A stretch of 64,000 nucleotides of DNA. Source: an uncultured Candidatus Poseidoniales archaeon. Lineage in GTDB: Archaea > Thermoplasmatota > Poseidoniia > Poseidoniales > Thalassarchaeaceae. The stretch lies in NCBI GenBank assembly GCA_963934015.1, contig CAWVWT010000002.1, forward strand, positions 81,399 through 145,398. The letters run 5' to 3'. The number at the start of each line of letters is the position of its first letter. The stretch's first letter is position 1. The position numbers and the translations under genes are program-made. This document shows positions 4,255-56,960 of the stretch, piece after piece. The notes beneath the pieces are model-generated. The model did no database searches and was not told where the DNA came from. It saw nothing but the letters and a program-made list of their open reading frames with translations.

Positions 4255-7200
4255 ATGGCAGATACAGTATACTTGGAATCCTATGAGGAGACTGAAGTAT
4301 TATTGTCGAAATTATCCCAACCAGTTCGCGACTGGTTCAAGGACAAATTTCCAGATTTCACCGACCCGCAAAAAATGGCAATTCCATCGATTATTGATGG
4401 TGAACATCTTTTGTTGTGCTCCCCTACTGGCTCGGGAAAAACTCTGACTGCATTTTTGACAATCATTGACAAACTTATTCGCTTGGCAATGGATGGTAAT
4501 CTCGAAAAGCAGGTATATTGTGTATACATTTCTCCAATCAAGGCACTTGCCAACGATATTCAGCGAAATCTAATCGGGCCTCTCACCGAGATCAAAGAGC
4601 GTTACCTTCCAGGAAGAACCCAGGAGATCAAAATTGGGTTGCGAACTGGAGACACCCCCCAATCCGAGCGGCAAAAGATGCTCAGAAAACCCCCTCATAT
4701 TCTCATTACTACACCCGAATCGTTGGGCCTTGCATTGGCCTCTAAGAAATTCAGACCTCTGATGCAGGATCTAAAGTGGCTGATTATTGATGAAATGCAT
4801 TCTCTTGTTCCAACCAAACGAGGTACACATCTGGCGCTAACCATGGCCCTGCTCGACACACTCATCGCAAATCCGGTTCAAAGACTAGGTATTTCTGCAA
4901 CCATGGAACCCTTAGGGGAAGTGGCACAATTTCTCGTCCCAGTGAAAGCTGAAGATCGCGAGAGTGAATCACATACACCGTTGCCTAAATTCGATGATGA
5001 AGTATCTTCAAGAGTCCATATCGCCAAAGTGAGCGAAGTTCGGGAATTGGATTTGGATATCATTCTACCACACCCTAAATTTAGTGAAGTCCCAGTCAAG
5101 CAATTACTCGAGCACAATGTCGACATCATCAAAGATCTTGTAGAGGCTCATACGACTACGCTTGTTTTCGCAAATACACGGCAGATGACCGAGACCATTA
5201 CACAAAAATTGCGTGTCTTGGGGGTGGCTGGTGTTGAAGGTCACCACGGTTCGATGGATAAGCAAATACGGCTTGAAGTGGAGCGTAAACTCAAACGTGG
5301 TGAATTGCGATGCTGTGTATCTTCCTCCTCACTTGAGATGGGTATCGACATTGGAAGCGTGGACTTGGTTATTCAATTGGGTTCCCCTGGTTCAATTGCC
5401 ACAGCGTTGCAGCGCATTGGGCGTGCAGGTCACCATGTGGGGGGTATTCCTCGTGCACGCTTCTTACCCACCTCATCCCACGACCTCCTCGAATTGGTCG
5501 CCCTCCAAGGTGCCATTATGTCCGGTGAAATGGATCTTCTTCGCTTCCCGAAGAATTGCTTCGATGTTTTAGCACAATTCGTCATTGGGTTGACCATATG
5601 TGGCGAGATTGACATGGATGAGGCATTCTCTATTATCACTTCAGCATACCCCTATCGTACCCTTTCCTATGATGATTACATCGAAGTTCTATCGTTGCTT
5701 GAGGATGAGCGTAGAGTCTGGGTTGATTGGGAACAAAACATCATCGGAAAGCGTGGTTACGCGCAGATGATTTACTACACGAACATCGGTACAATCGCTC
5801 CAGATAACAACTATCTTGTCTTCAGCGCGGATGGTTCGATGATTGGGCAATTATCCTCTTCATTTGTTCAAAATATACGCCCTGGTGACGTATTCTTACT
5901 GGGTGGTTCTACCTATCGTGTACACCAAATCCAAGCGAGTCGTGTTAGTGTGACATCAGTTACTGGATATCGCCCTACAGTACCCTCTTGGTCGGGTGAA
6001 GCCAAGAGTCGAACACGTGAACTTTCTCTAGCGGTTCTCAAATTATTGAATGTCACAGTGACCACAATTCGCCGGGGCCGAGATCCGCGCCTACTGCTGT
6101 CCGGGGCGTATGGATTATCGCAACCGGTAGCTGAATCCTTGGCACGTTTCCTTGAAGAACACACCATTGATTCAATTCAGGTACCAAGTCCGGACAAGAT
6201 TCTCATTGAGCAAATCGTTAATTCTTCAGTTCCAACATATATTATCACAACATGTCGGGGTCGAGCTTTCAACATGGCGCTCGGGTACTTCATGGCAGGA
6301 TTGTGTGATCTCAAAAATATCCATGTCGTTGAAATGTCATTTGATGAAAACTCATTCTTGTTCAAAACTGGTCAAGAGATTGATACAAATGAAATTTATC
6401 CGATGTTTAAGGACAATCAGCGAGATTCTGTATTGCAACGATATTTGCTAGATAGCCAACTATTTGCAAAGCGTTTCAGAGAGGTGTCTGGCCGTTCTAT
6501 GATAGTTCCACGAAGAATTGGTGCTGAAGAAGTGAGTCCCAAGCAATTTCAACAAAAGTCAGAGAAAGTTTTCCGAGAACATCGGCAGCACGCCGATAGT
6601 TTGCTAATACGCGAGGCCCAAAATGAAATTTTCCATACCGACCTTGACATGGAGGAACTGGAAAATTTCGTCAATCGGATGGAAGATGAAGGTGTACGAA
6701 TTGTGCATTCAAGGGTTACTTTACCCAGCGTTCTTGGTATGAATTTGTATATGGCAGCATTCGAAGATTTGCTTAGTATGCGGACCCGTGCATACCTAGT
6801 CAAAGACATCGATCCTGAAATTTTACGCCGGTTATTAGGTGGGCGTTCACGCGCCACCGATTTGGATGATGATGCCCTTAATCTCTACTTTCAAGCCAAG
6901 GCAAAGATTCCTGAAGATGCGGATGGGCTATTGCGTTTGATGGAAAAGGGTGGTGGTTTGCATCCAGATCTCAAGAATCCTCTCTATGAAGATAAGCTCA
7001 GAGATATTCAGCACGAAACTATTCATAAATGGGTAGTTGAACTAGCCGAATCAGGTTCGATTACAAAACTACGAGCAACTGGGTCTACAGAAGTGGATGA
7101 AAAATGGTTCTCAATGCGAATGGCAGAAGTTCACGGAACCCTCGGTGTACTCGCTACCAAGGGCGCCGATGGTATGGATGATTTACGTGAGTTGTATACA

Positions 7201-9591
7201 GGTGGACTTTCTTATGAGTTAGCAAACAAATTTGATGGTGCAAATCCAACATCTTGGGAATCTGTAAAATTGATGGACCCACACGAAGCCCTTCGAATAA
7301 AGATCGTCGATATGCTGGGTAGTGAAGGACCCAAAACATTGGTTGGACTTTCCGAACGGCTCCCTTTCCCAGAAGCTCAAATCGAGTCTTTACTACACGA
7401 ACTCGAAGTCCGCAATATTGTATCAATCGGCTTTTTCAAACAAACTGAGGAAGGCGAATTTATTCTTCGAATAGATGAGCACATTATCACTGGTGGTGAT
7501 GATAATATTGTCGAATACCGTGCCCTTCAAAATTTACTCTTAACAAAGTCATTCAAGCAATACCCTGATGCTTTGACAGCACTTGAAGATGGACATGTTA
7601 TGTTTGCTAAGATGCAAGAACTACTCGACCGTATCGAAAATTTCAGATTTGCTGATTGGAAGGATATGAAACATGATTCAGATATCGTCATGGGGCGTTT
7701 ACTCCATTCGCGTGTGGGGTATACGACTAAAGCAATGATTCCTATGCTACTTGGTCTGCGCCCAGAACCTTGGTTTTCCGAAATGGATGAGGAATTATCC
7801 GAAAAAATCCCACCACATGTAAATGTAGAAAGAACCGAAATTGTTGGTCATTTACCACGCGGTGATGAGAATAAGTATATTCAGAGGGATGCTCGAAATT
7901 CATTGTCGAATATGGAACGTCAAATGGTTTTCGTCAAGCAATTTGAGGAATTGATTGATCGTAAACGCTCATTGTCTCTTTTCCATCGAGTTCATGATGT
8001 CTATGAACCAATGCCATTCACTCAGGCATTAGAGGAATTAATCAAGAGAATCGGTCCGATCAAATTACACTCATTGCGATTATTCGTCAGCCATCCGGTG
8101 GAATTACTTGCTGAAGTCCTGCGCGACCTTGAGGATAGCAATAAAATTGTGAGAGTTACAGCTCTACAACCGGACCCAACTGACTTCTTCTGTGTGCCCT
8201 CAGATGCAGCCTCCCTAGAACGGTCACATCGAGAAGATCGAAAGTTACGCATATTGTCTCAATCAGATCCGTTCTGCTCACGTTTTATTCAAGAAGTACG
8301 CTATGTTCTCAAACAAGGTTGGTATTATCCAATTTTCAAGGGCGTTGATCCCGTCGGCCGCATCTTGATGTTCAAAGTAAATGACTATCTAGAAATCAAG
8401 GACATCCACATCCCACATGCCTACCTTGATGAATTTTCTGAAATATTTGAGACACTTCTTGACAACTACAAAGATACCCTTGTTGACGTATCTGTTTTAC
8501 ATGCATTCAATGGAGAACCAATCCATGATTGCGATGAAAACATTCAGGCGATCGTTGAAAAACTAGGTTTCCGTACGATGGGGGATAACCTTCGATACAT
8601 CCGTGGTGGTGTTGTTGATCCACGCCCGCGTTCACTCGCCCTTCGTGCACTATTCCACCATCATCGGCTGCATCAAGATACCCGTTTAGAAAACGAAACA
8701 ATAGCAGTTTCCCATATCCCAGAAATTCGTGACGATTTTGCCCTTCGAGGGCGTTGCGAGATGTTCCGCGTCGATTTGAAATCGATGGCTGCTAGTCAAC
8801 AATTGCACCAGGGCACCAATCTTCGGAATCATCAAGTTTGGGCACCTTACAAGCACTTTCAACGACTTCTACGTATGCGAGGTGTTGCACCTGATGAAGA
8901 TTTACTGGATATCCTTGAGTTCTTCTCTGGACACTCAGACGCTAAAGTTTTCATGGACCGTTATGCAATGAAACGAGCGGAATTCAGGAAATTGGTTCAA
9001 CCACTAATCCGCTCAGGGCACGTGGTTCAGGATTACCGAGGCGGATTTAAAACTGTAAAGCGACTTGAAGGTAAAGAGACATGGGAAATCAAGCGGGATT
9101 ACCTTAGAGAAATGGTCGCTGAATATCCAGTTATCACGTTAAAACAATTTGAGAAATTAGCAGGAAGTCCGTTCAAACCCGAGCAATTGTCGAGTGTACT
9201 GCATGAATTTGAAGAGGAAGGTCTTCTAATCAAGGGCTTCCTCATCGATGATTTACATGAGGTTTGCTGGGGGCGGCAAGAACTGCTAGAAGATGCTGAT
9301 AAATTACCTCCAATGCGTGATTTTGTCCTTCCGCCTTCAGATCCACTTCTGCCCTATTTCCAATCACTGCTTAGAGAGAGATTTGGTTACGGGAGTGCAT
9401 ACATGGTGTTTTGGAATGAAGAGCCAATTGCGGCTTTCAAGGCCAATACGAGAAATGATGTAATTGACGTAACTGATTTCGTTGGTGATTCCGAGAAGGA
9501 AAAAGAAGCATTACGGGTAATGAAAGAGTTTGCATGGGAACACAATATGCCACTCAAGGGCAAGGTTCTAGAGCGCTTGAAGTCAAGATGA
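4255..9591 (+). CDS. lhr: Lhr-type DExH-box ATP-dependent helicase, unusually long (1778 aa)
   Basis: Motif I CSPTGSGKT, motif II IIDEMH, motif III ISATM, motif VI LQRIGRAGH, followed by a DEAD-associated (Lhr) region FPKNCFDVLAQFVIG. About 880 extra C-terminal residues. Confidence 0.85.
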   Translation: MADTVYLESYEETEVLLSKLSQPVRDWFKDKFPDFTDPQKMAIPSIIDGEHLLLCSPTGSGKTLTAFLTIIDKLIRLAMDGNLEKQVYCVYISPIKALANDIQRNLIGPLTEIKERYLPGRTQEIKIGLRTGDTPQSERQKMLRKPPHILITTPESLGLALASKKFRPLMQDLKWLIIDEMHSLVPTKRGTHLALTMALLDTLIANPVQRLGISATMEPLGEVAQFLVPVKAEDRESESHTPLPKFDDEVSSRVHIAKVSEVRELDLDIILPHPKFSEVPVKQLLEHNVDIIKDLVEAHTTTLVFANTRQMTETITQKLRVLGVAGVEGHHGSMDKQIRLEVERKLKRGELRCCVSSSSLEMGIDIGSVDLVIQLGSPGSIATALQRIGRAGHHVGGIPRARFLPTSSHDLLELVALQGAIMSGEMDLLRFPKNCFDVLAQFVIGLTICGEIDMDEAFSIITSAYPYRTLSYDDYIEVLSLLEDERRVWVDWEQNIIGKRGYAQMIYYTNIGTIAPDNNYLVFSADGSMIGQLSSSFVQNIRPGDVFLLGGSTYRVHQIQASRVSVTSVTGYRPTVPSWSGEAKSRTRELSLAVLKLLNVTVTTIRRGRDPRLLLSGAYGLSQPVAESLARFLEEHTIDSIQVPSPDKILIEQIVNSSVPTYIITTCRGRAFNMALGYFMAGLCDLKNIHVVEMSFDENSFLFKTGQEIDTNEIYPMFKDNQRDSVLQRYLLDSQLFAKRFREVSGRSMIVPRRIGAEEVSPKQFQQKSEKVFREHRQHADSLLIREAQNEIFHTDLDMEELENFVNRMEDEGVRIVHSRVTLPSVLGMNLYMAAFEDLLSMRTRAYLVKDIDPEILRRLLGGRSRATDLDDDALNLYFQAKAKIPEDADGLLRLMEKGGGLHPDLKNPLYEDKLRDIQHETIHKWVVELAESGSITKLRATGSTEVDEKWFSMRMAEVHGTLGVLATKGADGMDDLRELYTGGLSYELANKFDGANPTSWESVKLMDPHEALRIKIVDMLGSEGPKTLVGLSERLPFPEAQIESLLHELEVRNIVSIGFFKQTEEGEFILRIDEHIITGGDDNIVEYRALQNLLLTKSFKQYPDALTALEDGHVMFAKMQELLDRIENFRFADWKDMKHDSDIVMGRLLHSRVGYTTKAMIPMLLGLRPEPWFSEMDEELSEKIPPHVNVERTEIVGHLPRGDENKYIQRDARNSLSNMERQMVFVKQFEELIDRKRSLSLFHRVHDVYEPMPFTQALEELIKRIGPIKLHSLRLFVSHPVELLAEVLRDLEDSNKIVRVTALQPDPTDFFCVPSDAASLERSHREDRKLRILSQSDPFCSRFIQEVRYVLKQGWYYPIFKGVDPVGRILMFKVNDYLEIKDIHIPHAYLDEFSEIFETLLDNYKDTLVDVSVLHAFNGEPIHDCDENIQAIVEKLGFRTMGDNLRYIRGGVVDPRPRSLALRALFHHHRLHQDTRLENETIAVSHIPEIRDDFALRGRCEMFRVDLKSMAASQQLHQGTNLRNHQVWAPYKHFQRLLRMRGVAPDEDLLDILEFFSGHSDAKVFMDRYAMKRAEFRKLVQPLIRSGHVVQDYRGGFKTVKRLEGKETWEIKRDYLREMVAEYPVITLKQFEKLAGSPFKPEQLSSVLHEFEEEGLLIKGFLIDDLHEVCWGRQELLEDADKLPPMRDFVLPPSDPLLPYFQSLLRERFGYGSAYMVFWNEEPIAAFKANTRNDVIDVTDFVGDSEKEKEALRVMKEFAWEHNMPLKGKVLERLKSR

Positions 9592-32976: not shown

Positions 32977-34107
32977 ATGCGAGCCGTAATTGGTGGCTAT
33001 ATTCGGACGCCTTTCCAGCGAGCGCATCGGGGAGCACTCAAAGATACAAGACCAGAAGACATGGTATCTTCCTGCATCCGACATACGGTTGCCCAATGCA
33101 ACCAAGGTGACCAAATTGAAGATGTCATGGTCGGCTGCGCCTATCCTGAAGGGGAACAAGGGCTCAATATCGGCCGTATTTCCACATATATGGCTGGACT
33201 TCCAGACACCGTACCAGGTATGACAACAAATCGTTTGTGTGGATCGTCCATGCAAGTCATTCACACAGCAGCAGGTTCTATCGCCATGGGTTCGGGTCAA
33301 GTGTTCATATGCGCAGGTGTCGAATCAATGTCTCGTGTAATGCGAGGTGGATTCAATCGCTCCCCACATCCTAATCTAGAACAATCATATCCTGAGGCCT
33401 ATATTGGAATGGGTATGACGGCTGAAAATTTAGCATTAAGCCATGATATTACTCGCAAAGCACAAGAAGAATTTGCAGCCATTAGTCATTCGAAAGCAAT
33501 TTCCGCCCAGAGGGTCGGTCATTTCAAGGATGAAATCATTCCAGTTGATGGTACTGATTGCCAATTAGACGGATGCATACGTGAGCCCAATCTGGAAAAA
33601 ATGGCTAATTTGAAGCCTGCTTTCATCGAAAATGGTAGTGTCACGGCTGCGACTAGTTCACCACTCACTGATGGTGCCGCAAGTGTCTTCGTTTGCTCTG
33701 ATATATTTGCCATGGAACATAATATCAAGCCCCTAGCCACAATCGTCGCAACCGCTGTAGCTGGTGTTTCACCTGGGATCATGGGTTACGGACCAGTACC
33801 AGCGGCAAACAAAGCCCTATCTCGGGCAGGTTTGTCTTTGGATGATATCGATATTATCGAAATGAATGAAGCCTTTAGCGCACAATCCTTGGCATGCATG
33901 AAAGATATGGAACTAGACATGGATGATTCTAGGATTAATGTTGACGGGGGCGCTTTGGCAATCGGCCATCCACTAGGGGCGAGTGGTTGCCGAATCACTG
34001 GTAAATCTGCTAGTTTATTGCAAAGAACTGGCGGGCAGTATGCGCTTGCGACCATGTGCATTGGTGGCGGCATGGGTATCGCAACAGTGCTTGAGAGATG
34101 GAATTGA
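32977..34107 (+). CDS. Acetyl-CoA C-acetyltransferase (thiolase II, bacterial-like)
   Basis: Active-site NRLCGSSMQ, C-terminal NVDGGALAIGHPLGASG and CIGGGMG motifs. ATG at 32977 chosen because the longer ORF overlaps kptA. Confidence 0.88.
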   Translation: MRAVIGGYIRTPFQRAHRGALKDTRPEDMVSSCIRHTVAQCNQGDQIEDVMVGCAYPEGEQGLNIGRISTYMAGLPDTVPGMTTNRLCGSSMQVIHTAAGSIAMGSGQVFICAGVESMSRVMRGGFNRSPHPNLEQSYPEAYIGMGMTAENLALSHDITRKAQEEFAAISHSKAISAQRVGHFKDEIIPVDGTDCQLDGCIREPNLEKMANLKPAFIENGSVTAATSSPLTDGAASVFVCSDIFAMEHNIKPLATIVATAVAGVSPGIMGYGPVPAANKALSRAGLSLDDIDIIEMNEAFSAQSLACMKDMELDMDDSRINVDGGALAIGHPLGASGCRITGKSASLLQRTGGQYALATMCIGGGMGIATVLERWN

Positions 34108-35156
34108 TTCACAATAGGCTGATATGTTGTAGTCAATGGCGCATCATGGGCTTCGGTATACGTGATGGACGCCGTCAAGCAAAGGAAAACTTGAGTTCCG
34201 ATGAAGAGGGTGACTGCCCACGGTGCAATGGCAGTGCCAATGCATCATCTATTCCTGGTTATCTCCAATGCGCTAGGTGTAAATATGAATGGCAAGATTC
34301 CGATGAGTTATCCTCAGATAAAGGGCCACGTGATTCTATTTCGCGTGATTCAGAGAAACTTGAAGATTTCAAACGTGAAATGTCTGCCGGTGAGGGACTT
34401 GCGCGTGTTTTAGGTGTCGAAGATGGATTGGATGCTGCTCAGAAAGAATCTATGGGGCGATTGCAGGACAAATGGATGAGTGGGATGCATGGGCAATACA
34501 ATGCTGCAGAGGATGAACGCAAACCACTAATGATCGCCTTTGACGATGATGATAATCTTCTCGAAACACAGGTTGGCGCCATTCATATATCGGACAATGT
34601 ATTTGATGGCGGGGAAGAAATTCGAATTGAGTACCCCGGAAGGGGAACTGAATTTTTTGTCATAAATGATGATGATGCTCTTGGATGGAAACGGGGCCGG
34701 ACATTGGAGGAAACTGCACGTAACATAGCGTCGATTATCAACCGCTCCAGTACACTTGTGCATGCATCAGCTGAAGGTACGACCGTGTCTATCGAATTAC
34801 GCGATATTAATCTTGATTCCAATAGTCTAGTAATTTACGTTGACGATCCTGGTGGCAAAAATATGACAGTCGAGCGCTTAGGGGTCATTCTAGATCCTGA
34901 TCAAATACAGGTGTATGAAGACTATCATCAAGTCATCAAGGTTGCATTGGCTGATGGAATCATCACACCAAGTGAAGATCAAATGCTTTGGGCAATGCGC
35001 CAAAATCTTGGCATAACAGATGAAGACCACGTTCGTATCATCCTTGACTTATTTGGCGACGATGCCGTCAAAGAATGTCCAGATTGTAGTGTCAATGTAC
35101 CTCTTTACATTGAGTATAATGCTTGGTGGTGCGAAGGTTGCCAGCAATGGGTTTGA
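34098..35156 (+). CDS. Acidic protein with N- and C-terminal zinc ribbons (hypothetical)
   Basis: CPRCNG..x14..CARC near the N-terminus, CPDC..x14..CEGC at the C-terminus, and DGIITPSEDQMLWAMRQNLGITDEDH (TerB-like helix pair). Start is ambiguous (34098 or 34146). Confidence 0.55.
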   Translation: MELIHNRLICCSQWRIMGFGIRDGRRQAKENLSSDEEGDCPRCNGSANASSIPGYLQCARCKYEWQDSDELSSDKGPRDSISRDSEKLEDFKREMSAGEGLARVLGVEDGLDAAQKESMGRLQDKWMSGMHGQYNAAEDERKPLMIAFDDDDNLLETQVGAIHISDNVFDGGEEIRIEYPGRGTEFFVINDDDALGWKRGRTLEETARNIASIINRSSTLVHASAEGTTVSIELRDINLDSNSLVIYVDDPGGKNMTVERLGVILDPDQIQVYEDYHQVIKVALADGIITPSEDQMLWAMRQNLGITDEDHVRIILDLFGDDAVKECPDCSVNVPLYIEYNAWWCEGCQQWV

Positions 35157-35242: not shown

Positions 35243-36268
35243 ATGACAGATGAGACACTTTACATTGGAGTAGACTTGGGGACATTTCGTTCAGTAATGG
35301 TATCCAGTGATGGACACGACGAAAAGGTGCTAACTGTTATTGGTACGCCAAAAGATCAAATTGCTAAGGGTTTCCTCAAGCGCGATGTTCTATTTGGTGA
35401 AGAAGCACTCAAAAACCGCCTCGCCCTCAACTTATTTCGTCCACTGGAACACGGTGTCATCAAAGATACTGCCGAAGACAAAAAATTCATTGCCCATTTC
35501 ATTACGAATATCATTGGGCTGGGAGATCCTGAAGATTACAACCGGGTAGTTGCCGTTATCGGCGCACCAGCTGAAGCTAGTCACGTAGACAAAACTGCTA
35601 TTTTCGATGCTGCTGCAGGCAGTGTGAATGCCTGTATGATTATATCTGAACCATTTGCTGTTGCTTACGCTCTCGATAAGATAGAGCATACGCTAGTCAT
35701 CGATATTGGTGCCGGCACCACTGATCTTTGTCGTGTTTACGGCACCGTGCCTACGCCTAATGACCAAATGCACCTCAATTTCGCTGGTGACCACATCGAC
35801 GCTCAAATCATAGCCGAAATTCAGCGTAAGTATGCCGGTGCTCAAGTCACCAAGGATATGGCACGTCGATGGAAGGAATCTCATTCCTTTGTCGGCGGAG
35901 CAGCACCAGATGACCCCGTAATTGTGGATTTTTCGATAGAAGGCAAGGCAATGTCTCTGGATATCACAGATTGCATCAGTGCAGCATGTGAAACCATTGT
36001 GGAACCAATCGTAGCTAGTGTCAAGGAATTGGTTGCAGGCTCCAATCCGGAATATCATGATGCATTCCGCCGGAATGTGATTCTCGCTGGTGGAGGGTCT
36101 GGAATCATTGGGCTTGGCGATATGATTGAAGAACGACTATCCGATCTTGGTGATGTCGAAGTTCTCACTGTTGAAGACCCATTGGAACTAGGTGCTATGG
36201 GTGGACTCAGATTGGCAATGGAAGTTCCTGAAGATATGTGGAAGAATCTAACTCTTGCACACCGCTAA
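35243..36268 (+). CDS. Actin-fold ATPase, MamK-like
   Basis: Phosphate-1 IGVDLGTFRS, connect-1 AVIGAPA, phosphate-2 LVIDIGAGTTDLC, adenosine VILAGGGSGIIGL, connect-2 EDPLELGAMGGLRLA. GAGGT SD 8 nt upstream of the ATG. Confidence 0.85.
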   Translation: MTDETLYIGVDLGTFRSVMVSSDGHDEKVLTVIGTPKDQIAKGFLKRDVLFGEEALKNRLALNLFRPLEHGVIKDTAEDKKFIAHFITNIIGLGDPEDYNRVVAVIGAPAEASHVDKTAIFDAAAGSVNACMIISEPFAVAYALDKIEHTLVIDIGAGTTDLCRVYGTVPTPNDQMHLNFAGDHIDAQIIAEIQRKYAGAQVTKDMARRWKESHSFVGGAAPDDPVIVDFSIEGKAMSLDITDCISAACETIVEPIVASVKELVAGSNPEYHDAFRRNVILAGGGSGIIGLGDMIEERLSDLGDVEVLTVEDPLELGAMGGLRLAMEVPEDMWKNLTLAHR

Positions 36269-48583: not shown

Positions 48584-49375
48584 TTGAATCGATGGCATCG
48601 TATATTGGGCCGTGTGGCATTCGTAAATTGTGATCCTTTGTATCATGATTTGCCCCCACCTTGGGAAGTTTTACCAGCACCGCCATCATGGCTAACTGGC
48701 CACATTCTGCGAAAGGATTGCTTACTTGCACCGATACCAACCGCGGATTTTGCCAAACATTCAGAGCAATTGCAACTGTTACCTGATATTTGCATCGGTT
48801 CAACCGGTACCGTTGGATCCGTTCTATTATTTGGAGACAGAGATCCATCACAAATGCGTGATGTTGCATTGCCTACAGATTCTGCCACCTCTCGAAAATT
48901 ATGCATGTGGTTGCTGCAACAAATGGGTTTGAACCCACGTCCAGTTGACATGGGCCCAGATCTTGGTCAAATGCTAGATCGTTGTGATGGTGCGTTGTTG
49001 ATTGGTGATAGGGCCCTTGATGAATCAGCTAGACATCCAGAATTAATCCGAATGGATTTGGGTCAAGCATGGCTGGAACTAACCGGTTTCCCCATGGTAT
49101 TCGCAGTATATGCAGCCCATCGCGATGCTCCACCTGAAATGCTTAGGAAAGCACACAAATTACTTCGAACCCAATTAGAATCATTCGAAAATTCTCCTGC
49201 TGTTAGAAATTCCGTGATTCGTGCAACATCAACGCGCAGTGGCTTCAGTGAGGACAGGATAGAACAGTACTTCGGGGAGGTAGTTCATCGACTAGATGTT
49301 CTTGGAAAAAAAGGACTCACACACTTTTTGGAGGAAGTATGTGAATTACCATCCTATCAAATTGTAGACATTTAG
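48584..49375 (+). CDS. mqnA: MqnA-like chorismate dehydratase (VitK2 biosynthesis family)
   Basis: GRVAFVNCDPLYHDL N-terminus and LIGDRALD motif typical of MqnA. Non-ATG start (TTG 48584, or GTG 48614). Confidence 0.65.
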   Translation: MNRWHRILGRVAFVNCDPLYHDLPPPWEVLPAPPSWLTGHILRKDCLLAPIPTADFAKHSEQLQLLPDICIGSTGTVGSVLLFGDRDPSQMRDVALPTDSATSRKLCMWLLQQMGLNPRPVDMGPDLGQMLDRCDGALLIGDRALDESARHPELIRMDLGQAWLELTGFPMVFAVYAAHRDAPPEMLRKAHKLLRTQLESFENSPAVRNSVIRATSTRSGFSEDRIEQYFGEVVHRLDVLGKKGLTHFLEEVCELPSYQIVDI

Positions 49376-51729
49376 TTACTCGACTTCTTTCGTCGTACAG
49401 GGCGCTTCTTTTTGGGTTTCGTTCCAGTCTCCGATGTTATGTAAGCGATAGCATCTGAGATCGTTTCCTCGTCTTCAATGTCGGACATTTTATTCTCTTC
49501 ACTTGGTGCAATCAAGTGTTTGAAATCTACAGATTCGTTTCCGCTGGCATCAGCAGATTCAGTTTTACGTGTTCGTTTCACTTTCTGTTTTTTTGAGGAG
49601 GGAATATTCGGTTGACGTTTTTGCCTCGCAATGTCGCGCTGTACTGCACCAGGCGGCATGGGCATGCCCCGTAAATCTCTGATTACAGCTGAAGGAGGAA
49701 CGGGTCCCGATTTGGGTGAGAGTTCACCCTCCATCTCTTCATCCCATGCGGCTGCATCATCAATGAGTTGTTCCAATTCTTCATCGTGTTGTGAATCGAT
49801 ATACCCTGGCTCCTCTGTATCCGTAAAATCAATTGTATTTCGATGTCGCATTATTGCAAGGGATATTGCTGATATCGATAATAGCGAGATGAATGCAAAC
49901 GCATACCAGTAAGTTGTTAGTAGTTCAACAAGTGAATCAACATTGGATTTTTCATCGATTGGAGGGATATCCATTAGCAAATAAATATCTGGATCTCTGC
50001 GATTCCAAACTTCATAATCAATTCGACTACCACTGACATCTTCAATCTGAACATGGATTGGGAATGCATGGACATTTTGTGCAATGCTCTCACTGGGAGT
50101 TTGAATGCCCGATAATATACTAACATTGTACGGTGTTTGGACTGGTGCATCTATGAATCCCTGCACTTGCCAACTGACTGAAATCCGGGTGCCTCTATCA
50201 CTGTCCATCGTACCATATAAATCAGATTTTTCAATACTACACTGTACTGAAACTGGGTTATATGGGTTATCATCAATTTCAAGATATGCGCCCCACCTAG
50301 ATAGTACCTCATCGACATTGTATTCAGTGCAGATAGAATGTTGTATTTGCATAAATTCATCATTATCGACACGATGATTGGAATTAAGTGAATTTGAAGC
50401 CAAGATTCGTAGCTGATGGCTATTTTTAGCATCAAGGTGGATTGTTTCAATCACGATTACTGAATCTTGATTTATCGTAATATCAAATTGACGAATGAAA
50501 TTTTGGTCGGGTTGTAAGTGGCAATTGGTGCCGGCGATGCAGATATTATCATACATATCAATGATGCCATCACCATCATCATCATCATCTACTTGGTCCG
50601 CTAGATTGTCCTGATCAGTATCTATTGAACTGGGTATCAGCAATTCTGAATAAACTGAATCAGAATAAAAGGCAACTAGATTTGACAATGTCGAAATTGC
50701 CAGAGCGTTAGAACTTGGATGTAAGGACATCATTACAGCCTTATGACCAATAAACAGGGTTCTAGATGTTGAGATTGGTGTTGATTTAATTTCAACAAAA
50801 TCTACCTTGCGATATTGCGTAGTAATGACTTCAGATGATAATATTGCAACCTCTGAATCATCGTATGTATACAACATTTGTGAAGCATTTGGACTAATAT
50901 CATATTGCCCGAAATAAGATCGAGTGACATCGTGGTTCCTCAGGTATAGTGATCCATCACCAATCCACGACATAAGGGTCCCATCATTAGAAAATTTACA
51001 ATCAACGATTGGGTGGGTGTACTCCCAACGTGTGATTTCCGACTGATCGTTTCTATTCCATAATATCACAATACCGTCGCTCGCCCCACTCAGTAGATGT
51101 TCTCCGTCATTTGAATGGTCGAGACATGAAATATGCCCATTGTGCGGTGAAGAATATACTCGGTCGATATCTAAAATAGACCCTGTCCCCATATTTATGC
51201 TCCATTCAATGATCTCACCATTTTCGGATGCAGTCGCGAATGTATTGTCGTCGGGTGATATGCTAATTCGATCAATATTCTCTCCATCTTCTGTATGCAT
51301 AGTACGTTCATAGACACCATCAAGGAGTTCATACACAATTGTTGCTGGCGTGTTCGGTAATTGGCTTACCATTCCAATAAGTAGGTATTGAGCATTCGAT
51401 GTAAATGCTATTGAGTCTACAAAAAAATCAACGTGGAAGTTCTGAATTTTCTCGTTTGTAACTGTGTCAACTATCATAATTGACGATTCATGGGCGCTAG
51501 CAACAATATCTCCATTCGGGCTATATGCAACTGCGCTACCATACCCGAAATCCGATTCAGCTGCACCAGCCCATGCCAATCCACTTGAGGCAGTCACGAA
51601 AGGTGTCATGCATACAGCAACGAAGCAAAGTGAAAGAAGAATCGCGGAGAGCCCACGATTGTTGAAATCAGCACCGGCCACGATAGTGGTAGTGCAATTC
51701 CACTCAAAGGCATTGCGCAATATATGCAT
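49372..51729 (-). CDS. Membrane-anchored beta-propeller (WD40-like) surface protein with Ca-binding Asp-rich repeat and basic cytoplasmic tail
   Basis: N-terminal signal/TM LSAILLSLCFVAVCMTPFV. Repeated blades (SPNGDIVASAHESSIMIVD, SPDDNTFATASENGEIIEW, HSNDGEHLLSGASDGIVILWN). TSP3-like DDDGDGIIDMYDNIC. TM YAFAFISLLSISAISLAIM. Lys/Arg-rich tail. Confidence 0.6.
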   Translation of the reverse strand: MHILRNAFEWNCTTTIVAGADFNNRGLSAILLSLCFVAVCMTPFVTASSGLAWAGAAESDFGYGSAVAYSPNGDIVASAHESSIMIVDTVTNEKIQNFHVDFFVDSIAFTSNAQYLLIGMVSQLPNTPATIVYELLDGVYERTMHTEDGENIDRISISPDDNTFATASENGEIIEWSINMGTGSILDIDRVYSSPHNGHISCLDHSNDGEHLLSGASDGIVILWNRNDQSEITRWEYTHPIVDCKFSNDGTLMSWIGDGSLYLRNHDVTRSYFGQYDISPNASQMLYTYDDSEVAILSSEVITTQYRKVDFVEIKSTPISTSRTLFIGHKAVMMSLHPSSNALAISTLSNLVAFYSDSVYSELLIPSSIDTDQDNLADQVDDDDDGDGIIDMYDNICIAGTNCHLQPDQNFIRQFDITINQDSVIVIETIHLDAKNSHQLRILASNSLNSNHRVDNDEFMQIQHSICTEYNVDEVLSRWGAYLEIDDNPYNPVSVQCSIEKSDLYGTMDSDRGTRISVSWQVQGFIDAPVQTPYNVSILSGIQTPSESIAQNVHAFPIHVQIEDVSGSRIDYEVWNRRDPDIYLLMDIPPIDEKSNVDSLVELLTTYWYAFAFISLLSISAISLAIMRHRNTIDFTDTEEPGYIDSQHDEELEQLIDDAAAWDEEMEGELSPKSGPVPPSAVIRDLRGMPMPPGAVQRDIARQKRQPNIPSSKKQKVKRTRKTESADASGNESVDFKHLIAPSEENKMSDIEDEETISDAIAYITSETGTKPKKKRPVRRKKSSN

Positions 51730-51842
51730 CAATACGATTCGAATATACGATTATTTGGCCATTCCAGTAAATCAGCGATACTCGCAACATTACTGGTTTT
51801 TGACACCTGAATCAAATCAACGAGGGGGGAGTCCTTAGCCCC

Positions 51843-52715
51843 CTAATTATCAGCGTCCGCACCAATAAAATCGATATTGGCGGTGTCAAAGTTTACATCA
51901 ATCATGCCAATATCCTGGCCTGCTTTGAGAAATTTTTTGACACTTGCCCTTCCATCAGCGCCATAGTCAATAGTACGTGCGTTCACATACATCTGCACAA
52001 ATTTTGAATTTGTTTCCTCATCGATACCTCGACCCCATTGCATGGCGAAATCAAGAGCGGCTTCTGGTTCTTTGATACTATATTCAATCGACATCTTAAC
52101 CCATTCCGATATCTGTGCACATGCATCTTCACCAAGATCTCTGCGAACGACATTACCCCCCAAGGGAAGTGGCCAGCCATTGTTTGAATTATTCCACCAA
52201 ACACCCAAATCTAAGAGAAGATTCATTCCGTGCTCTTTCCAAGTTAATTGTCCCTCGTGGATGATAACACCTGCTGCAAATTCCCCAGATTGAATTCGGG
52301 GGATGATTTCATCAAAGGGTACTACGGCAATATCAACCTCTCCGCAAGCGAGTTTTAGTGCTAGATAGGCACTTGTTTTTAATCCAGGGATGGCGATTGT
52401 TCCACGGCAAGCCTCATCGAGTGAAATCGGTGTATTTGTGACCAGCATTGGGCCATACCCTTCACCCATTGACGCACCACAATTCATCAACGCATAGCGT
52501 TCACTAATTTCTGGATATGCATGTATGCTAACTGCGCTAACCTCATATTCGCCTTCAAGAGCCTTTTGATTGAGTGTTTCTATATCCAACAATACATGTT
52601 CGAAACAATAACCTGGAGTTTCAAATGCCCCCGTAGTAAGTGCGTGAAACATGAACGCATCATCAGGATCTGGGGAATGCCCAACTCGTATGGTACGCAC
52701 GCCTTGATTGCCCAT
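51843..52715 (-). CDS. mqnD: MqnD-like 1,4-dihydroxy-6-naphthoate synthase
   Basis: IRVGHSPDPDDAFMFHAL (compare the SPCPNDTF motif), DIETLNQKA and GEGYGPMLV patterns of MqnD. Confidence 0.7.
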   Translation of the reverse strand: MGNQGVRTIRVGHSPDPDDAFMFHALTTGAFETPGYCFEHVLLDIETLNQKALEGEYEVSAVSIHAYPEISERYALMNCGASMGEGYGPMLVTNTPISLDEACRGTIAIPGLKTSAYLALKLACGEVDIAVVPFDEIIPRIQSGEFAAGVIIHEGQLTWKEHGMNLLLDLGVWWNNSNNGWPLPLGGNVVRRDLGEDACAQISEWVKMSIEYSIKEPEAALDFAMQWGRGIDEETNSKFVQMYVNARTIDYGADGRASVKKFLKAGQDIGMIDVNFDTANIDFIGADADN

Positions 52716-53013: not shown

Positions 53014-53060
53014 GCGTCGTATTCAATAGCCCCCGTCATTCATCACTTTGTGGTGAGTTG

Positions 53061-54299
53061 ATGTCTGTTGGTTGGGCCCGATACGCATTCAAGTTCGGTG
53101 AATACTACAGGAATCGTAAAATTGATGAAATGTGGTACCCACCACGACTCCGTTCTAGAGAATGGATGTTCGATGGATTCGATGACAGGCCACCGGAGCG
53201 ACACCGTGGATTTCGAAAACCGACTGACTTACTCGCTCATGTTGTCCGAAAAACCCCCAAAAGTTGTTTTTATTCAACAGCATATTATCTGGACCCAAAT
53301 CAACGATTAATGAAGGAAAAAGGGTTGCAAGGTGCAGATTTAATTTTCGATTTGGATGGCGATCACCTACCAGGGGTTACAGATGGTGATTTCCCGACAA
53401 TGATTCATGTCATTCAAGATCAAGCATTCAAATTGTGGACAGATTTTTTGGAACCAGAATTTGGTTTTGATCGACAACATTTGCAAATTACGTTCTCCGG
53501 ACATCGGGGATTCCACCTGCATTATAGATCGCCTGATATTTGGGCCCTAGATTCACAAGCTAGACGTGAAATTGTTTCCCACATCAAGGGTGAAGGTGTT
53601 GATGTGCAGGTTCTGCTCAAAGGCCCCGATTGTGCATGGAAAAGGCGCATTACATCTGGAGTTGATTCGGTCCTTAGTAAACTCGATTTTGCTGCCAATG
53701 ATGATGCGCAGGGGCGCAGTTCCATCAAGGAACTCAAAGCCATCATTGATTCGAGAATTGGCACACCAGGTGTAAAGGTGCGAAGTTGTGGAATAAAATC
53801 GATTCAAGCCATTGCCGACAAAGTGCAAAATATTGGGCTGCGGAATAGGCTAATTGATGGACTCAACGCTGGTGAATTGAAACCCGTATTTGGGGGTCGT
53901 AAAGGTGGTGGTGAATATGATCAAATCTTCAGGGAATTGGTCAAGGGCGATAGTTCGGTGGTTCTCGGCAATGCAGGTGAAACCGATGAAGTTGTTACAA
54001 TTGATTTGAAACGTGTCATTCGTTGGCCGACGAGTTTGCACGGTAAATCTGGGATGAAGGTTGTCGAGTTTCCACTCGAACGACTAAACCCTGATGATGC
54101 CAATGCGTTTGATCCTCTCACTGAAGCTGTACCTTGGAAGATGGGGGTCAATGATGTGAAGGTGCGTGCCATACGGTCTGATGTTCAGTACAGAATCGGT
54201 GAATCGGCAGGTCAACTAGACACCGGTGAAATTTACCATGTAGATGAGGCTACAGCGACATTTTTGGTACTCAAAAAATGGGCCGAACCTATTGATTAG
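53061..54299 (+). CDS. priS: DNA primase small (catalytic) subunit PriS
   Basis: Catalytic ADLIFDLDGDH and FSGHRGFHLHY motifs. ATG at 53061 (the listed 53058 is TTG). Confidence 0.88.
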   Translation: MSVGWARYAFKFGEYYRNRKIDEMWYPPRLRSREWMFDGFDDRPPERHRGFRKPTDLLAHVVRKTPKSCFYSTAYYLDPNQRLMKEKGLQGADLIFDLDGDHLPGVTDGDFPTMIHVIQDQAFKLWTDFLEPEFGFDRQHLQITFSGHRGFHLHYRSPDIWALDSQARREIVSHIKGEGVDVQVLLKGPDCAWKRRITSGVDSVLSKLDFAANDDAQGRSSIKELKAIIDSRIGTPGVKVRSCGIKSIQAIADKVQNIGLRNRLIDGLNAGELKPVFGGRKGGGEYDQIFRELVKGDSSVVLGNAGETDEVVTIDLKRVIRWPTSLHGKSGMKVVEFPLERLNPDDANAFDPLTEAVPWKMGVNDVKVRAIRSDVQYRIGESAGQLDTGEIYHVDEATATFLVLKKWAEPID

Positions 54300-54388
54300 C
54301 CTTGCACCAACTCTGTTGGTGTGGAAGGACTACCGCAGCATACGTTAAAGGCGAACGCAGGTTCAAGGTTGGTACGGTGGTGCGTAGC

Positions 54389-56170
54389 ATGTCTGAAGAA
54401 GATGAGAATCCAACCCTTCCACCGCCACCTATGCCTGGGTCTGCAGACCTTCCACCACCACCACCAATGCCAGCACCTGTAGGTCTGCCAATCCCACCTC
54501 CTATGCCTTCTGCGGGGGATTTACCACCTCCACCCATGCCTGCCGCTATGCCTGCCCCTCCACCCATGCCTGCCGCTATGCCTGCCCCTCCACCCATGCC
54601 TGCTGCTATGCCTGCTCCTCCACCCATGCCTGCCGCTATGCCTGCTCCCCCACCTATGCCAGAGATGCCAGCACCCCCCCTCACGCCCGTGATGCCCGCC
54701 CCTCCACCTATGCCAGAGATGCCCGTGCCGATTGCCGCAATCGACGAGGCTACAGAACCAGTAATTGAATTGCCTGACCCACTGGCAGCTCTCGACATCC
54801 TTGGTTCCACAACAGCTCCAATACAATCACCGGAACCTGCAATTGGCGAGTCTTTAGAGACGGCTGATTTACTAGCTGCTCTAGATTCTTCACCCTCTGA
54901 AAATGCTGGTGAACCAGAACTAAGTGTGGCTGATTACAAATGGAAAGATACTGTACTTGAAGCGGTTATTGATAAATTTAGCATCACGGATCGAGATGCA
55001 TTTTTGGTTCATGCAACATCTTTCGACGCCAATAAGAATCTCTACCTGACAAAAAGTGAACTTACACAGGCAGCGAAAGAATGGGTTGAAATGACGACCC
55101 CAATTGCTGATTTACAAACTGTTGATCTGCCTGTGGAATTTGCTGCAGTGGTTTCGGACGAAACCGAAGCAACCGCTGATTTACCAGAAGTTGTTGATTT
55201 AGAAATAGCACCTGTGGTAAAATTGCCCGAACCAGTACCTGCCCCAGCAGTTGTGGATTTACCCCCACCTCTGCCAGCACCACCACAAGCGATTGAATTA
55301 CCTCCATTACCAGCCCCTGTCCCCGAAGCGACTGTTGAAATTCAAGGGTTTACCGTGCAAGATACTGATGTGGATGTCGGTGATGATAATACCCAAACTG
55401 AGGATTATCGTGAACTATGGAAGCGCCGTTCGGAGAAATCATTGCCACAGATGTATGGTGCCATAGATCGAATTGGCAGTGGGGAAATAGGATCACTACT
55501 CGATCGATATTCGGATAGATTTGGTCATGAGTTGGACCGCGAGATTATTGTAATGCGCAGGGCTGAACAGGATTCAAGGCGCGAAGCAGTGCCAGTTGTT
55601 GAATTGATTTCATCCCCAGAACAAGAGGAGGTGGAAGAAGATGAACTCAAATCGCAACTTACCGAAGTTGAGGATATTCTGCGTCCACTTCAGCAGGCAT
55701 ACAAGGCTGCTGAAAGTAATTCTGAAAAGAAAGAAATGGCCCCTGCTTTGAAAGCATTGATTGCTGAGCGAAAAATTTTGCTTTCAGTCATTGCCGGTGA
55801 AGCCGATGAAGATGCCCTACTTGACATCCCTGAAAGACCCGAAATTCCAAATTATTTGGGCGCCGACGCCGATTATCAGGCTGATGATGTCGAATCTGGT
55901 GACGATTTCGATGATTTCTTCAATATCATCAACCAATTATTAGGGGAAATGCCGGAAAAATGGGTGAATAATTTTGTTGACTCCAAGGGTTTTGCACTGT
56001 TTCAAAAAGTTGGTGCAGATCCAAATAGTGCAAATGAAAAGACCCGGAAGAAATTCTTCAATATGATTAACAACGAGCTTGGAAGCATGCCAGAAGATAT
56101 GCTTGATGCCTTTGTGGCTTCACCCGAGTTTGAATTGTACAAGAGTATAGGCGAAAAATACGGAGAGTGA
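54389..56170 (+). CDS. Acidic proline-rich repeat protein (hypothetical)
   Basis: ATG at 54389 (MSEEDEN). About 110-aa polyproline tract including 4x PPMPAAMPAP, a second P-rich block, a coiled-coil-like region, and a duplicated C-terminal motif FFN(I/M)IN..LG.MPE. No TM or signal peptide seen. Confidence 0.7.
   Translation: MSEEDENPTLPPPPMPGSADLPPPPPMPAPVGLPIPPPMPSAGDLPPPPMPAAMPAPPPMPAAMPAPPPMPAAMPAPPPMPAAMPAPPPMPEMPAPPLTPVMPAPPPMPEMPVPIAAIDEATEPVIELPDPLAALDILGSTTAPIQSPEPAIGESLETADLLAALDSSPSENAGEPELSVADYKWKDTVLEAVIDKFSITDRDAFLVHATSFDANKNLYLTKSELTQAAKEWVEMTTPIADLQTVDLPVEFAAVVSDETEATADLPEVVDLEIAPVVKLPEPVPAPAVVDLPPPLPAPPQAIELPPLPAPVPEATVEIQGFTVQDTDVDVGDDNTQTEDYRELWKRRSEKSLPQMYGAIDRIGSGEIGSLLDRYSDRFGHELDREIIVMRRAEQDSRREAVPVVELISSPEQEEVEEDELKSQLTEVEDILRPLQQAYKAAESNSEKKEMAPALKALIAERKILLSVIAGEADEDALLDIPERPEIPNYLGADADYQADDVESGDDFDDFFNIINQLLGEMPEKWVNNFVDSKGFALFQKVGADPNSANEKTRKKFFNMINNELGSMPEDMLDAFVASPEFELYKSIGEKYGE
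54530..54649 (+). repeat. Four in-frame 30-bp tandem repeats (CCACCCATGCCTGCCGCTATGCCTGCCCCT)
   Basis: Copies at 54530, 54560, 54590 and 54620. Copies 1 and 2 are identical. Copies 3 and 4 differ only at third codon positions (all synonymous). Confidence 0.95.
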
Positions 56171-56174
56171 ATCC

Positions 56175-56960
56175 ATGGGACTCCTAGAAAAAGCAGGCAA
56201 AATCAAAGATGGTGACAAGCCCAAAAAGGCTGTAGCAAAAGCAACTAAGGGTAAAGCGAAGCCTGTAAAAGCAGTAAAAGCAAAACCTGTGAAAGCACAG
56301 AAGGCAGCTCGCAAACCTCGTGAACGTGTTGCACGCGAACCTCGTGTGATGCCTGATGGATTCAATTTAGCGGGTAAGGCAGCTAGATTTGCACGCCGCT
56401 TGGTTGATTTCATTGTAACTTATGGCGCATTCTTGGGTGTTCTTGGCGCCTTTGCAATGATTGATGGTGATTTTACCTACTTGTGGATTGCTGCAATCGC
56501 AATGATGCTGCTCAATCTGGTCGTATTGCCTCTCAAAACAAATCGCTCCGTTGGTATGTTTCTAACCAGGACTCGATATGTGAATCATAAAGGAAATCAT
56601 CCCTTTTTCATGCATCAAATTTTGAGTAGTCTTACTGCATTATATGTCATGCTGTCCATCGTAATGATTGGTGTTGGTGCAGGTGATACCGGTGGTGCTA
56701 ACTGGACAATTATTTCAATCGGGATTTTCCTTGGACTGATTCCATTTTCTGATTATGTAGTCACTAAATTGCGCAAAGCAAATGGTGAAACACAAAGTAT
56801 GTATGATGCTATGTTTGGTTGCTGGTATGTCGTTGCTGAACGCGCGGATACGGGTGACAGCGCATGGATGTCACGTCTGGAATCATTAGGAGATTGGGGC
56901 GAAAAGAAGGGCTGGTCAGGCTCTGCTACAGAAGACGAGGATGCAGAAAGTAATGATTGA
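56175..56960 (+). CDS. Membrane protein with lysine-rich N-terminal tail and RDD-like domain (hypothetical)
   Basis: ATG 4 nt after the preceding stop. N-terminus KPKKAVAKATKGKAKPVKAVKAKPVKAQKAARKPR, then ARFARRLVDFIVTYGAF and 3-4 TM segments. Confidence 0.6.
   Translation: MGLLEKAGKIKDGDKPKKAVAKATKGKAKPVKAVKAKPVKAQKAARKPRERVAREPRVMPDGFNLAGKAARFARRLVDFIVTYGAFLGVLGAFAMIDGDFTYLWIAAIAMMLLNLVVLPLKTNRSVGMFLTRTRYVNHKGNHPFFMHQILSSLTALYVMLSIVMIGVGAGDTGGANWTIISIGIFLGLIPFSDYVVTKLRKANGETQSMYDAMFGCWYVVAERADTGDSAWMSRLESLGDWGEKKGWSGSATEDEDAESND

Follow-up and report, generated by a model that had tools for sequence, protein, structure and literature searches.

Does a polyproline tract in a marine archaeon mark a formin-like partner of an archaeal actin homologue, or does it belong to a different kind of protein? 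This question is raised by a 64,000-nucleotide stretch of contig CAWVWT010000002.1 from an uncultured Candidatus Poseidoniales archaeon, here called the window, in which one open reading frame, gene X, starts with a proline tract that is partly built from 30-bp tandem repeats. A preliminary description of this DNA, made from the letters alone, compared the tract with the FH1 domains of formins. We followed this up computationally and found that the tract makes up the disordered N-terminus of protein X, which is conserved and cytoplasmic and whose gene is directly followed by a gene for a divergent RDD-family membrane protein, Y. We regard it as fairly probable that the tract forms an extended polyproline stalk or motif array in a membrane-associated X-Y unit, and that it does not belong to a formin-like actin nucleator.

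The proline tract and its repeats

Gene X and its proline-rich elements are located as follows.

54389 to 56170, + strand: gene X, 593 amino acids, very acidic (isoelectric point, pI, 4.05); from the open reading frame list, identical to database protein P0002
54416 to 54730, + strand: N-terminal proline tract, four spaced LPxPPP(M)P motifs, then (A/E)(A)MPAPPPMP units
54530 to 54649, + strand: core array, 4 x 30 bp, PPMPAAMPAP each, from Tandem Repeats Finder and unit-by-unit comparison
55220 to 55330, + strand: second proline block, (I/M)ELPPLPAP-type units, immediately upstream of the conserved core

Counted from the ATG at 54389, the tract corresponds to residues 10-114 (105 residues) and consists of 50.5% proline, with 4 acidic and 0 basic residues. 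With this start, the peptide quoted earlier is correct, and the second proline-rich block that had been placed near 55220-55330 is present. The tract carries several short polyproline runs within a disordered segment, and protein X as a whole contains 14 PPP and 15 PPxP motifs. Tandem Repeats Finder reported a repeat at 54527-54660 with a period of 30, 4.5 copies, 95% matches and a score of 233, and the in-frame units starting at 54530, 54560, 54590 and 54620 each translate to PPMPAAMPAP. The four 30-bp units, their positions and their synonymous differences were thereby confirmed. Units 1 and 2 are identical in DNA, and the only differences between units lie at 54604 and 54616 (unit 3) and at 54646 and 54649 (unit 4). 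All four (4/4) are C/T changes at third codon positions and are synonymous. Since 54616 and 54646 are the equivalent position in adjacent units, three events are more probable than four. Per unit, 24 of the 90 possible single changes are synonymous, which gives p ~0.019 for three events and 0.005 for four. By themselves, these four sites are a weak argument that the peptide is under selection. The preliminary description had concluded from them that the repeat is under purifying selection; this conclusion stands, but not by that argument, as the strong evidence for selection on the tract peptide comes from the homologues.

A scan of one genome per species recovered 375 X loci, in Poseidoniales (Marine Group II), and 80 of these were kept for checks of neighborhood and title. 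The kept loci carry Poseidoniales-type titles, save one contig binned as a Rhodobiaceae bacterium. This contig, L073 (CALDQY010000261.1), from a metagenome-assembled genome labelled "uncultured Rhodobiaceae bacterium", bears the archaeal gene order priS-X-Y described below and is probably a mis-binned Poseidoniales contig. Named X relatives in the database all belong to Marine Group II / Poseidoniales. When 1.84 billion representative proteins were searched exhaustively with a profile, no more than 282 clusters had an E below 0.001, hence the full-length X family is narrow. X is an uncharacterised core gene of Poseidoniales.

In all members examined, the conserved C-terminal half is preceded by a proline-rich segment, and the region upstream of the conserved core has a median of 30% proline (70 complete genes). 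Short-form proteins (~320-390 amino acids) start with a basic head, e.g. MAFRKRKKN, MRRRKKNK or MGLGKKKK, which is followed by a proline block of LPPPPG, LPPLPG or GMPMPPAP units, an acidic stretch and the conserved half. Long forms (~560-670 amino acids) occur in Thalassarchaeaceae-type genomes including the window. Their additional parts are an acidic head and the N-terminal tract, followed by the motifs LPDPLAALDIL and DLLAALD and by a helical domain of small size, and they retain the second proline block at the site of the short forms' sole block. As all members have a proline segment, the tract in the window is a clade-specific N-terminal extension of a family-wide feature. It had been called highly unusual for a euryarchaeal cytoplasmic protein. 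The cytoplasmic part of this claim holds, but the proline segment is a constant of the order Poseidoniales and in this sense not unusual.

The layout of the tract recurs in long-form relatives with other unit numbers. Where the N-terminus of a long form is complete, the three or four leading LPxPPP(M/L)P motifs retain sequence and spacing, while the number of (E/A)MPAPPPMP units ranges from ~2 to 13. The closest complete species-level relative, L015 (83% identity in the C-terminal half), has 11.4 copies of EMPAPPPMP with a 27-nt unit, compared to the four 30-nt units of the window. In-frame DNA tandem repeats were found in the proline region of 34 of 78 loci, and their periods and units vary by clade (an 11-residue unit x4.5 in L070, an 8-residue unit x3.5 in L083); units are gained or lost in frame, with 15-81 nt. 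The second proline block is itself tandemly amplified in relatives, e.g. ELPPLPSPPPAM x3.9 in L016. Across these loci, frequent slippage or unequal recombination that alters the unit number is visible, and so is selection that preserves the motif type, in which PxPP or PPxP comes after a hydrophobic residue. The retention of this type across clades is the real basis for calling the peptide conserved; conservation concerns the peptide motif and not the DNA alone. The comparison of repeat counts among homologues that had been suggested likewise revealed that copy number differs, with three versus four units in near-identical contigs and ~2-13 between species.

Part of this pattern could be produced by a passive spacer, i.e. 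an entropic or semi-rigid linker of which only length and stiffness matter and in which the likeness of units stems from recent duplication. The length of the region varies widely, from ~50 to ~200 residues, unit sequences differ between clades, and the arrays are young, with identical neighboring units, all of which suits such a linker. However, the leading three or four LPxPPP motifs are preserved in sequence and spacing where the folded parts have diverged to ~60% identity, and the hydrophobic flank (L/M) is retained in all clades, which a constraint on composition only would not predict. Because of this retention we favor some motif-specific role, which the sequences suggest over a pure spacer; the spacer seems rather unlikely to us.

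We also asked whether the array is reproducible. A near-identical contig, L001 (ENA ERZ27293055), shows 0 mismatches to the window in 13,782 aligned bases. The one difference is a 30-bp gap, in which one of the two identical units is gone so that three units are left. The three-unit form is either a real allele or an assembly collapse. Protein P0003 (sample ERZ4109989), from an independent assembly, has four units and two residue substitutions elsewhere. The four-unit array is thus reproducible and no one-off assembly artefact. JGI metagenome contigs that were scanned for array alleles and the right flank contained no copy of the window strain.

The coding strand is the + strand. The X frame runs for 593 codons from the ATG at 54389 to the stop at 56168-56170, and its C-terminal 479 residues match 332 database relatives. 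A Gly-rich open reading frame of 173 amino acids lies on the opposite strand at 54289-54810. Since the + frame runs on into a C-terminal half with 332 relatives, we rejected this opposite frame as the true gene and regard it as a mere mirror image of the tract. The tract is accordingly translated from the + strand, as had been proposed.

Domains and location of protein X

Protein X starts with MSEEDEN, and its maximum 19-residue hydropathy is 1.25 (up to 1.71 in 120 relatives). By this measure, neither X nor the 120 relatives contain a signal peptide or membrane anchor. Because it has no hydrophobic segment and a pI of 4.05, X is predicted to be cytoplasmic, in agreement with the preliminary description, and a secreted cell-wall or envelope spacer was rejected. 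An artefactual origin of the tract, be it an assembly expansion of the array, a true gene in the opposite Gly-rich frame or a secreted envelope spacer, is therefore barely credible. The contig with three units instead of four and the existence of the 173-residue opposite frame speak for it; the four units in P0003, an assembly with other differences, the continuation of the + frame into a strongly conserved half and the lack of signal peptides or membrane segments in the 120 relatives speak against it.

Searches of X against Pfam and NCBIfam gave nothing above noise. As a whole, X is largely disordered. Its folded parts were delimited with alignments and AlphaFold2 models, for which the predicted local distance difference test (pLDDT) is given.

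54926 to 55096, + strand: small three-helix domain, long forms only, from alignment and AlphaFold2 (pLDDT 80-87)
55406 to 55588, + strand: most conserved family motif, Y.ELW.RRS.KSLPQMYGAIDRIGSGEIGSLLDRYSDRFGHELDREIIVMR, from invariant alignment columns; predicted helical with moderate confidence only (pLDDT 50-65)
55619 to 55795, + strand: antiparallel coiled-coil hairpin, AlphaFold2 helices 82-111 and 115-140 (model m7bf4fb4f3702, pLDDT ~90)
55907 to 56161, + strand: C-terminal double three-helix module, aromatic-rich (pLDDT ~90), corresponding to Pfam PF27359 (TP_0179)

The C-terminal half, modelled from a 32-sequence alignment, is all-helical with a mean pLDDT of 76.5. It comprises the core motif of ~60 residues, which has a weak collinear match in remote relatives, the hairpin, a disordered acidic linker and the C-terminal module. 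In the module the pattern F..FF.I.N.LLG.MPE....F..S..F.L(F/Y) occurs twice, and alignments and AlphaFold2 agree on a tandem pair of aromatic-rich three-helix units of ~35-40 residues, as in PF27359. Indeed, the C-terminal 85 residues of X share with PF27359 proteins the tandem pair F..F..(I/V)(V/I)(D/N).LL..(L/M)P......F..S..F.(L/I)(Y/F), whereas the proline tract, the core motif and the coiled coil of X fall outside this domain. Relatives that match X at E ~1e-52 carry precomputed PF27359 matches, with the field of the window protein itself being empty, and hhalign aligned the X module with that of P0219, which bears a PF27359 match, at 97.8% probability.

The same module ends proteins with unrelated N-terminal parts, P0218/P0269, P0261, P0246 and P0176 among them. 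Its hosts include a bacterial-type DnaA ATPase of Candidatus Altiarchaeales, in which the module replaces the DNA-binding domain, and an ATPase of HerA type that has a long coiled coil. It also ends a zinc-ribbon coiled-coil protein, several multi-pass membrane proteins and small beta-rich proteins. Besides Altiarchaeales, it occurs in Woesearchaeota and other lineages; a word-indexed search with the module profile added little. Since the module is acidic, aromatic-rich and attached to many different domains, we infer that it is a protein-protein docking domain. A literature search on PF27359, TP0179 or proline-rich proteins of Poseidoniales found no functional report.

For the middle domain of the long forms the model shows three helices, and a short bridge joins two of the loops. 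One loop, FDANKNLYLTKSE (55037-55075), has the EF-hand-like spacing D-x-N-x-N-x-Y-x-x-x-x-E, without the usual glycine, and is conserved in long forms. Pfam gave no support for this domain and the best Foldseek match against the PDB had an E of 0.37; the unconfirmed resemblance to an EF-hand is a likeness of sequence pattern only. Between tract and middle domain, LPDPLAALDIL (54767-54799) and DLLAALD (54863-54883) are conserved within a variable, disordered stretch and look like short linear interaction motifs.

The priS-X-Y neighborhood

The genes around X and the elements in front of it are the following.

53058 to 54299, + strand: primase small subunit (PriS), Pfam DNA_primase_S, E 8.5e-17; constant upstream neighbor within Poseidoniales
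54344 to 54382, + strand: upstream elements, a GTTAAAGG box (54344-54351) and GGTGGTG (54376-54382), at conserved distances to the ATG
56175 to 56960, + strand: gene Y, 261 amino acids, four hydrophobic segments, a divergent RDD-family membrane protein

PriS, X and Y lie in this order on one strand in every one of the 80 species loci with sufficient flank, and Y directly follows X in 78 of 80 loci. For PriS, gene callers on the near-identical contig L001 start at the ATG at 53166.

The assignment of Y to the RDD family was made through its relatives. Y itself scores 13.9 bits against Pfam RDD (PF06271), below the cut-off of 24.1, and its orthologue in L005 scores 19.3 bits. The Y profile, however, aligns with the partner protein of L008 at 95.8% probability (hhalign), and this partner reaches 61.8 bits on RDD. 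Some Y relatives are named "RDD family membrane protein YckC" by JGI. The characteristic Arg before and Asp within the first membrane helix are found in RFARRLVDF of the window and RF..QLLDG of L008; the Arg is invariant in the alignment, and the Asp position is an Asn in L002. Y starts with MGLLEKAG, its first 60 residues are polybasic (pI 11.0) and its tail is acidic.

Gene Y starts 4 nt behind the stop of X, and a GGAG inside the end of X precedes it. Because the GGAG lies within X, translation of Y is probably coupled to that of X. PPP-induced ribosome stalling is relieved by EF-P or IF5A, and the 14 PPP triplets could in principle tie the production of X and the coupled Y to aIF5A, so that output tracks the state of the factor. 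The number of PPP and PPxP motifs (14 and 15) and the probable coupling fit such translation pausing. On the other hand, PPP is scarce in many relatives, whose units are of the type PPLP, PAPG or MPMPP, so that stalling strength is not conserved, and pausing as a side effect gives no reason to conserve the flanking hydrophobic residues. We consider it highly unlikely as the role of the tract and retain the stalk or motif array as the preferred reading.

Further support for the X-Y unit came from a remote lineage. Remote X-like proteins carry the TP_0179 module at independent E-values (i-E) of ~1e-22 to 1e-25 and, collinear with it, the core motif at a weak i-E of 2e-4 to 4e-2. The stop of their gene overlaps the start of an adjoining, bona fide RDD gene, and the gene upstream encodes a VWA protein, not a primase. 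The remote RDD partners begin with MGLLDKAK and have polybasic tails. The RDD-type partners of the window, L002, L005, L008 and L009 all start with MGLL(D/E)K(A/V), despite an overall identity of ~25% between lineages, which suggests that this shared N-terminus is a functional peptide. As the pairing recurs in a remote lineage in which the upstream neighbor is not the primase gene, the conserved functional unit is X plus Y, and the adjacency to primase may be synteny at the level of the order.

The region ahead of X was analyzed as well. A ..GTT(A/C)AAG.. box lies ~38-45 nt and a GGTG ~7-13 nt upstream of the ATG, and these distances are shared by 48 loci across the order and by 20 aligned species. 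We infer that they are the promoter box and ribosome-binding site of X itself; the fixed distances support the ATG at 54389 as the start and suggest that X has its own promoter. Some clades have CACC or CCTC ~20 nt upstream of GGTG or GAGG, which could pair. A check for a structured RNA in the upstream region found no consensus structure in the 20-species alignment and no meaningful Rfam match; an intergenic alignment of four loci gave no information. At 54305-54321, 6 nt past the priS stop and before the upstream box of X, lies CACCAAC-TCT-GTTGGTG, a perfect hairpin of 7 bp.

What the tract may do

We propose that the tract adopts an extended polyproline-II stalk. Polyproline-II helices rise ~0.31 nm per residue, and 105 residues would thus span up to roughly 30 nm when fully extended. 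The repeated hydrophobic-proline motifs would offer a multivalent surface for docking, serve as a tether of tunable length, or do both. The acidic X would be held at the membrane through the basic first 60 residues of Y, and its TP_0179 module would serve for docking to other proteins.

Several points weigh against this proposal. An interaction between X and Y is suggested by gene order and complementary charge (pI 4.05 versus 11.0) only, and a search with the Y profile found no X-Y fusion among 120 Y relatives. Within Poseidoniales the gene order could partly reflect shared ancestry, and the pairing is independently backed by one remote lineage only. The C-terminal half has no counterpart in the PDB: the best Foldseek match had an E of 0.35, and a profile search returned only coiled-coil noise at E of at least 0.15. 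A multivalent ligand and a passive spacer would both fit the data. Furthermore, the three-unit variant could be an assembly collapse rather than a real allele.

Known systems resemble the X-Y pair in part. One of them is Pra (Rv1078 / MAP_1025), the proline-rich antigen of mycobacteria and a membrane protein of the RDD family (PMC6313528). Like X and Y, it combines a proline-rich segment with an RDD-type membrane domain, but both parts are said to be in one polypeptide, whereas X and Y are two adjacent, probably coupled genes. To our knowledge, Pra has no TP_0179 module. ZipA, FtsK linkers and TonB are low-complexity, proline-rich connectors of variable length that lead from a membrane-proximal end to a folded interaction domain. 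The X tract shares the proline richness, variable length and low complexity of these bacterial P/Q-rich tethers. However, they have a membrane anchor of their own, which X has not, and their linkers have no conserved, repeated hydrophobic-proline motif. The only RDD protein for which an assay is reported is a Na+(Li+,K+)/H+ antiporter of Halobacillus (PMC5996927).

Under the comparison with formins, the tract would work as an FH1-like recruiter: its motifs would bind a partner that is profilin-, SH3-, WW- or EVH1-like and would supply a cytoskeletal polymer, e.g. one of the MreB-like protein encoded in the window. The tract does resemble FH1 in being unstructured and in having many short polyproline runs with hydrophobic flanks, the number of which varies between homologues. 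LPPPP, LPPPPPMP and PPLP fit the short consensus of eukaryotic proline-recognition domains, the motif is conserved across species beyond mere composition, and its multivalency is upheld by repeated amplification. Formin membership was nonetheless rejected, because no FH2 follows the tract: Pfam found none in the whole protein, and the C-terminal half matched no PDB entry by sequence or fold. The searches with Pfam, Foldseek and PDB profiles also revealed no known actin- or tubulin-binding domain in X, and the 23 window proteins scanned, within 64 kb, included no profilin, SH3 or WW family. The proline runs of X comprise only 3-5 residues, shorter than in many profilin-binding tracts.

The one actin-fold gene of the window, at 35243-36268 (+), is MreB/salactin-like (Pfam MreB_Mbl, E 3.9e-25) and not of the eukaryotic type. 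It lies 18 kb away, outside the conserved priS-X-Y neighborhood, and a functional link to it was rejected. The gene that precedes it, at 34098-35156 (+), has weak, below-cut-off zinc-ribbon and TerB-like matches. Thus, the FH1 likeness holds for composition and fails for FH2 and for profilin, SH3 or WW in the proteins scanned, and the tie to the actin homologue that the preliminary description had offered as speculation did not stand up. A polyproline-binding profilin exists in some archaea, but is so far documented only in Heimdallarchaeia (PMC8410842). Altogether, FH1-like recruitment appears quite improbable, and the polyproline stalk or motif array of an X-Y unit is the reading we prefer.

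A bolder version of this reading is that the motifs of X are read by a dedicated partner, either the TP_0179 module or an unrecognised proline-binding fold, and that X with Y would form a membrane-anchored multivalent assembly. We consider it improbable. If true, it would be a proline-motif scaffold that works like eukaryotic FH1/WASP-type signalling and evolved independently in a euryarchaeote, and the constant position beside the primase gene, taken together with the TP_0179 module of DnaA- and HerA-type ATPases elsewhere, would suggest a role in replicating or segregating the chromosome at the membrane.

Elsewhere in the window, a WD40 beta-propeller protein of 786 amino acids is encoded at 49372-51732 (-) between two MqnA-like (VitK2_biosynth) menaquinone genes at 48584-49375 (+) and 51843-52715 (-). 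This arrangement recurs in the distant Poseidoniales contigs L001 and L003-L006. A protein of 1778 amino acids, encoded at 4255-9591 (+), is an Lhr-type helicase with an additional AlkZ-like DNA glycosylase region.

Proline-rich low-complexity regions are ordinary features, and this one gives no evidence for eukaryote-like actin regulation outside Asgard archaea. The gene pair nevertheless deserves study. Few archaea of the surface ocean are as abundant as Marine Group II; its members have never been cultured, and their cell biology is inferred almost wholly from sequence. The fast-evolving repeat could double as a strain marker in metagenomes. The X-Y pair is present in every Poseidoniales lineage examined and has no assigned function, and what was a compositional curiosity becomes a defined target, a two-gene unit with a portable module that is shared with other archaea.

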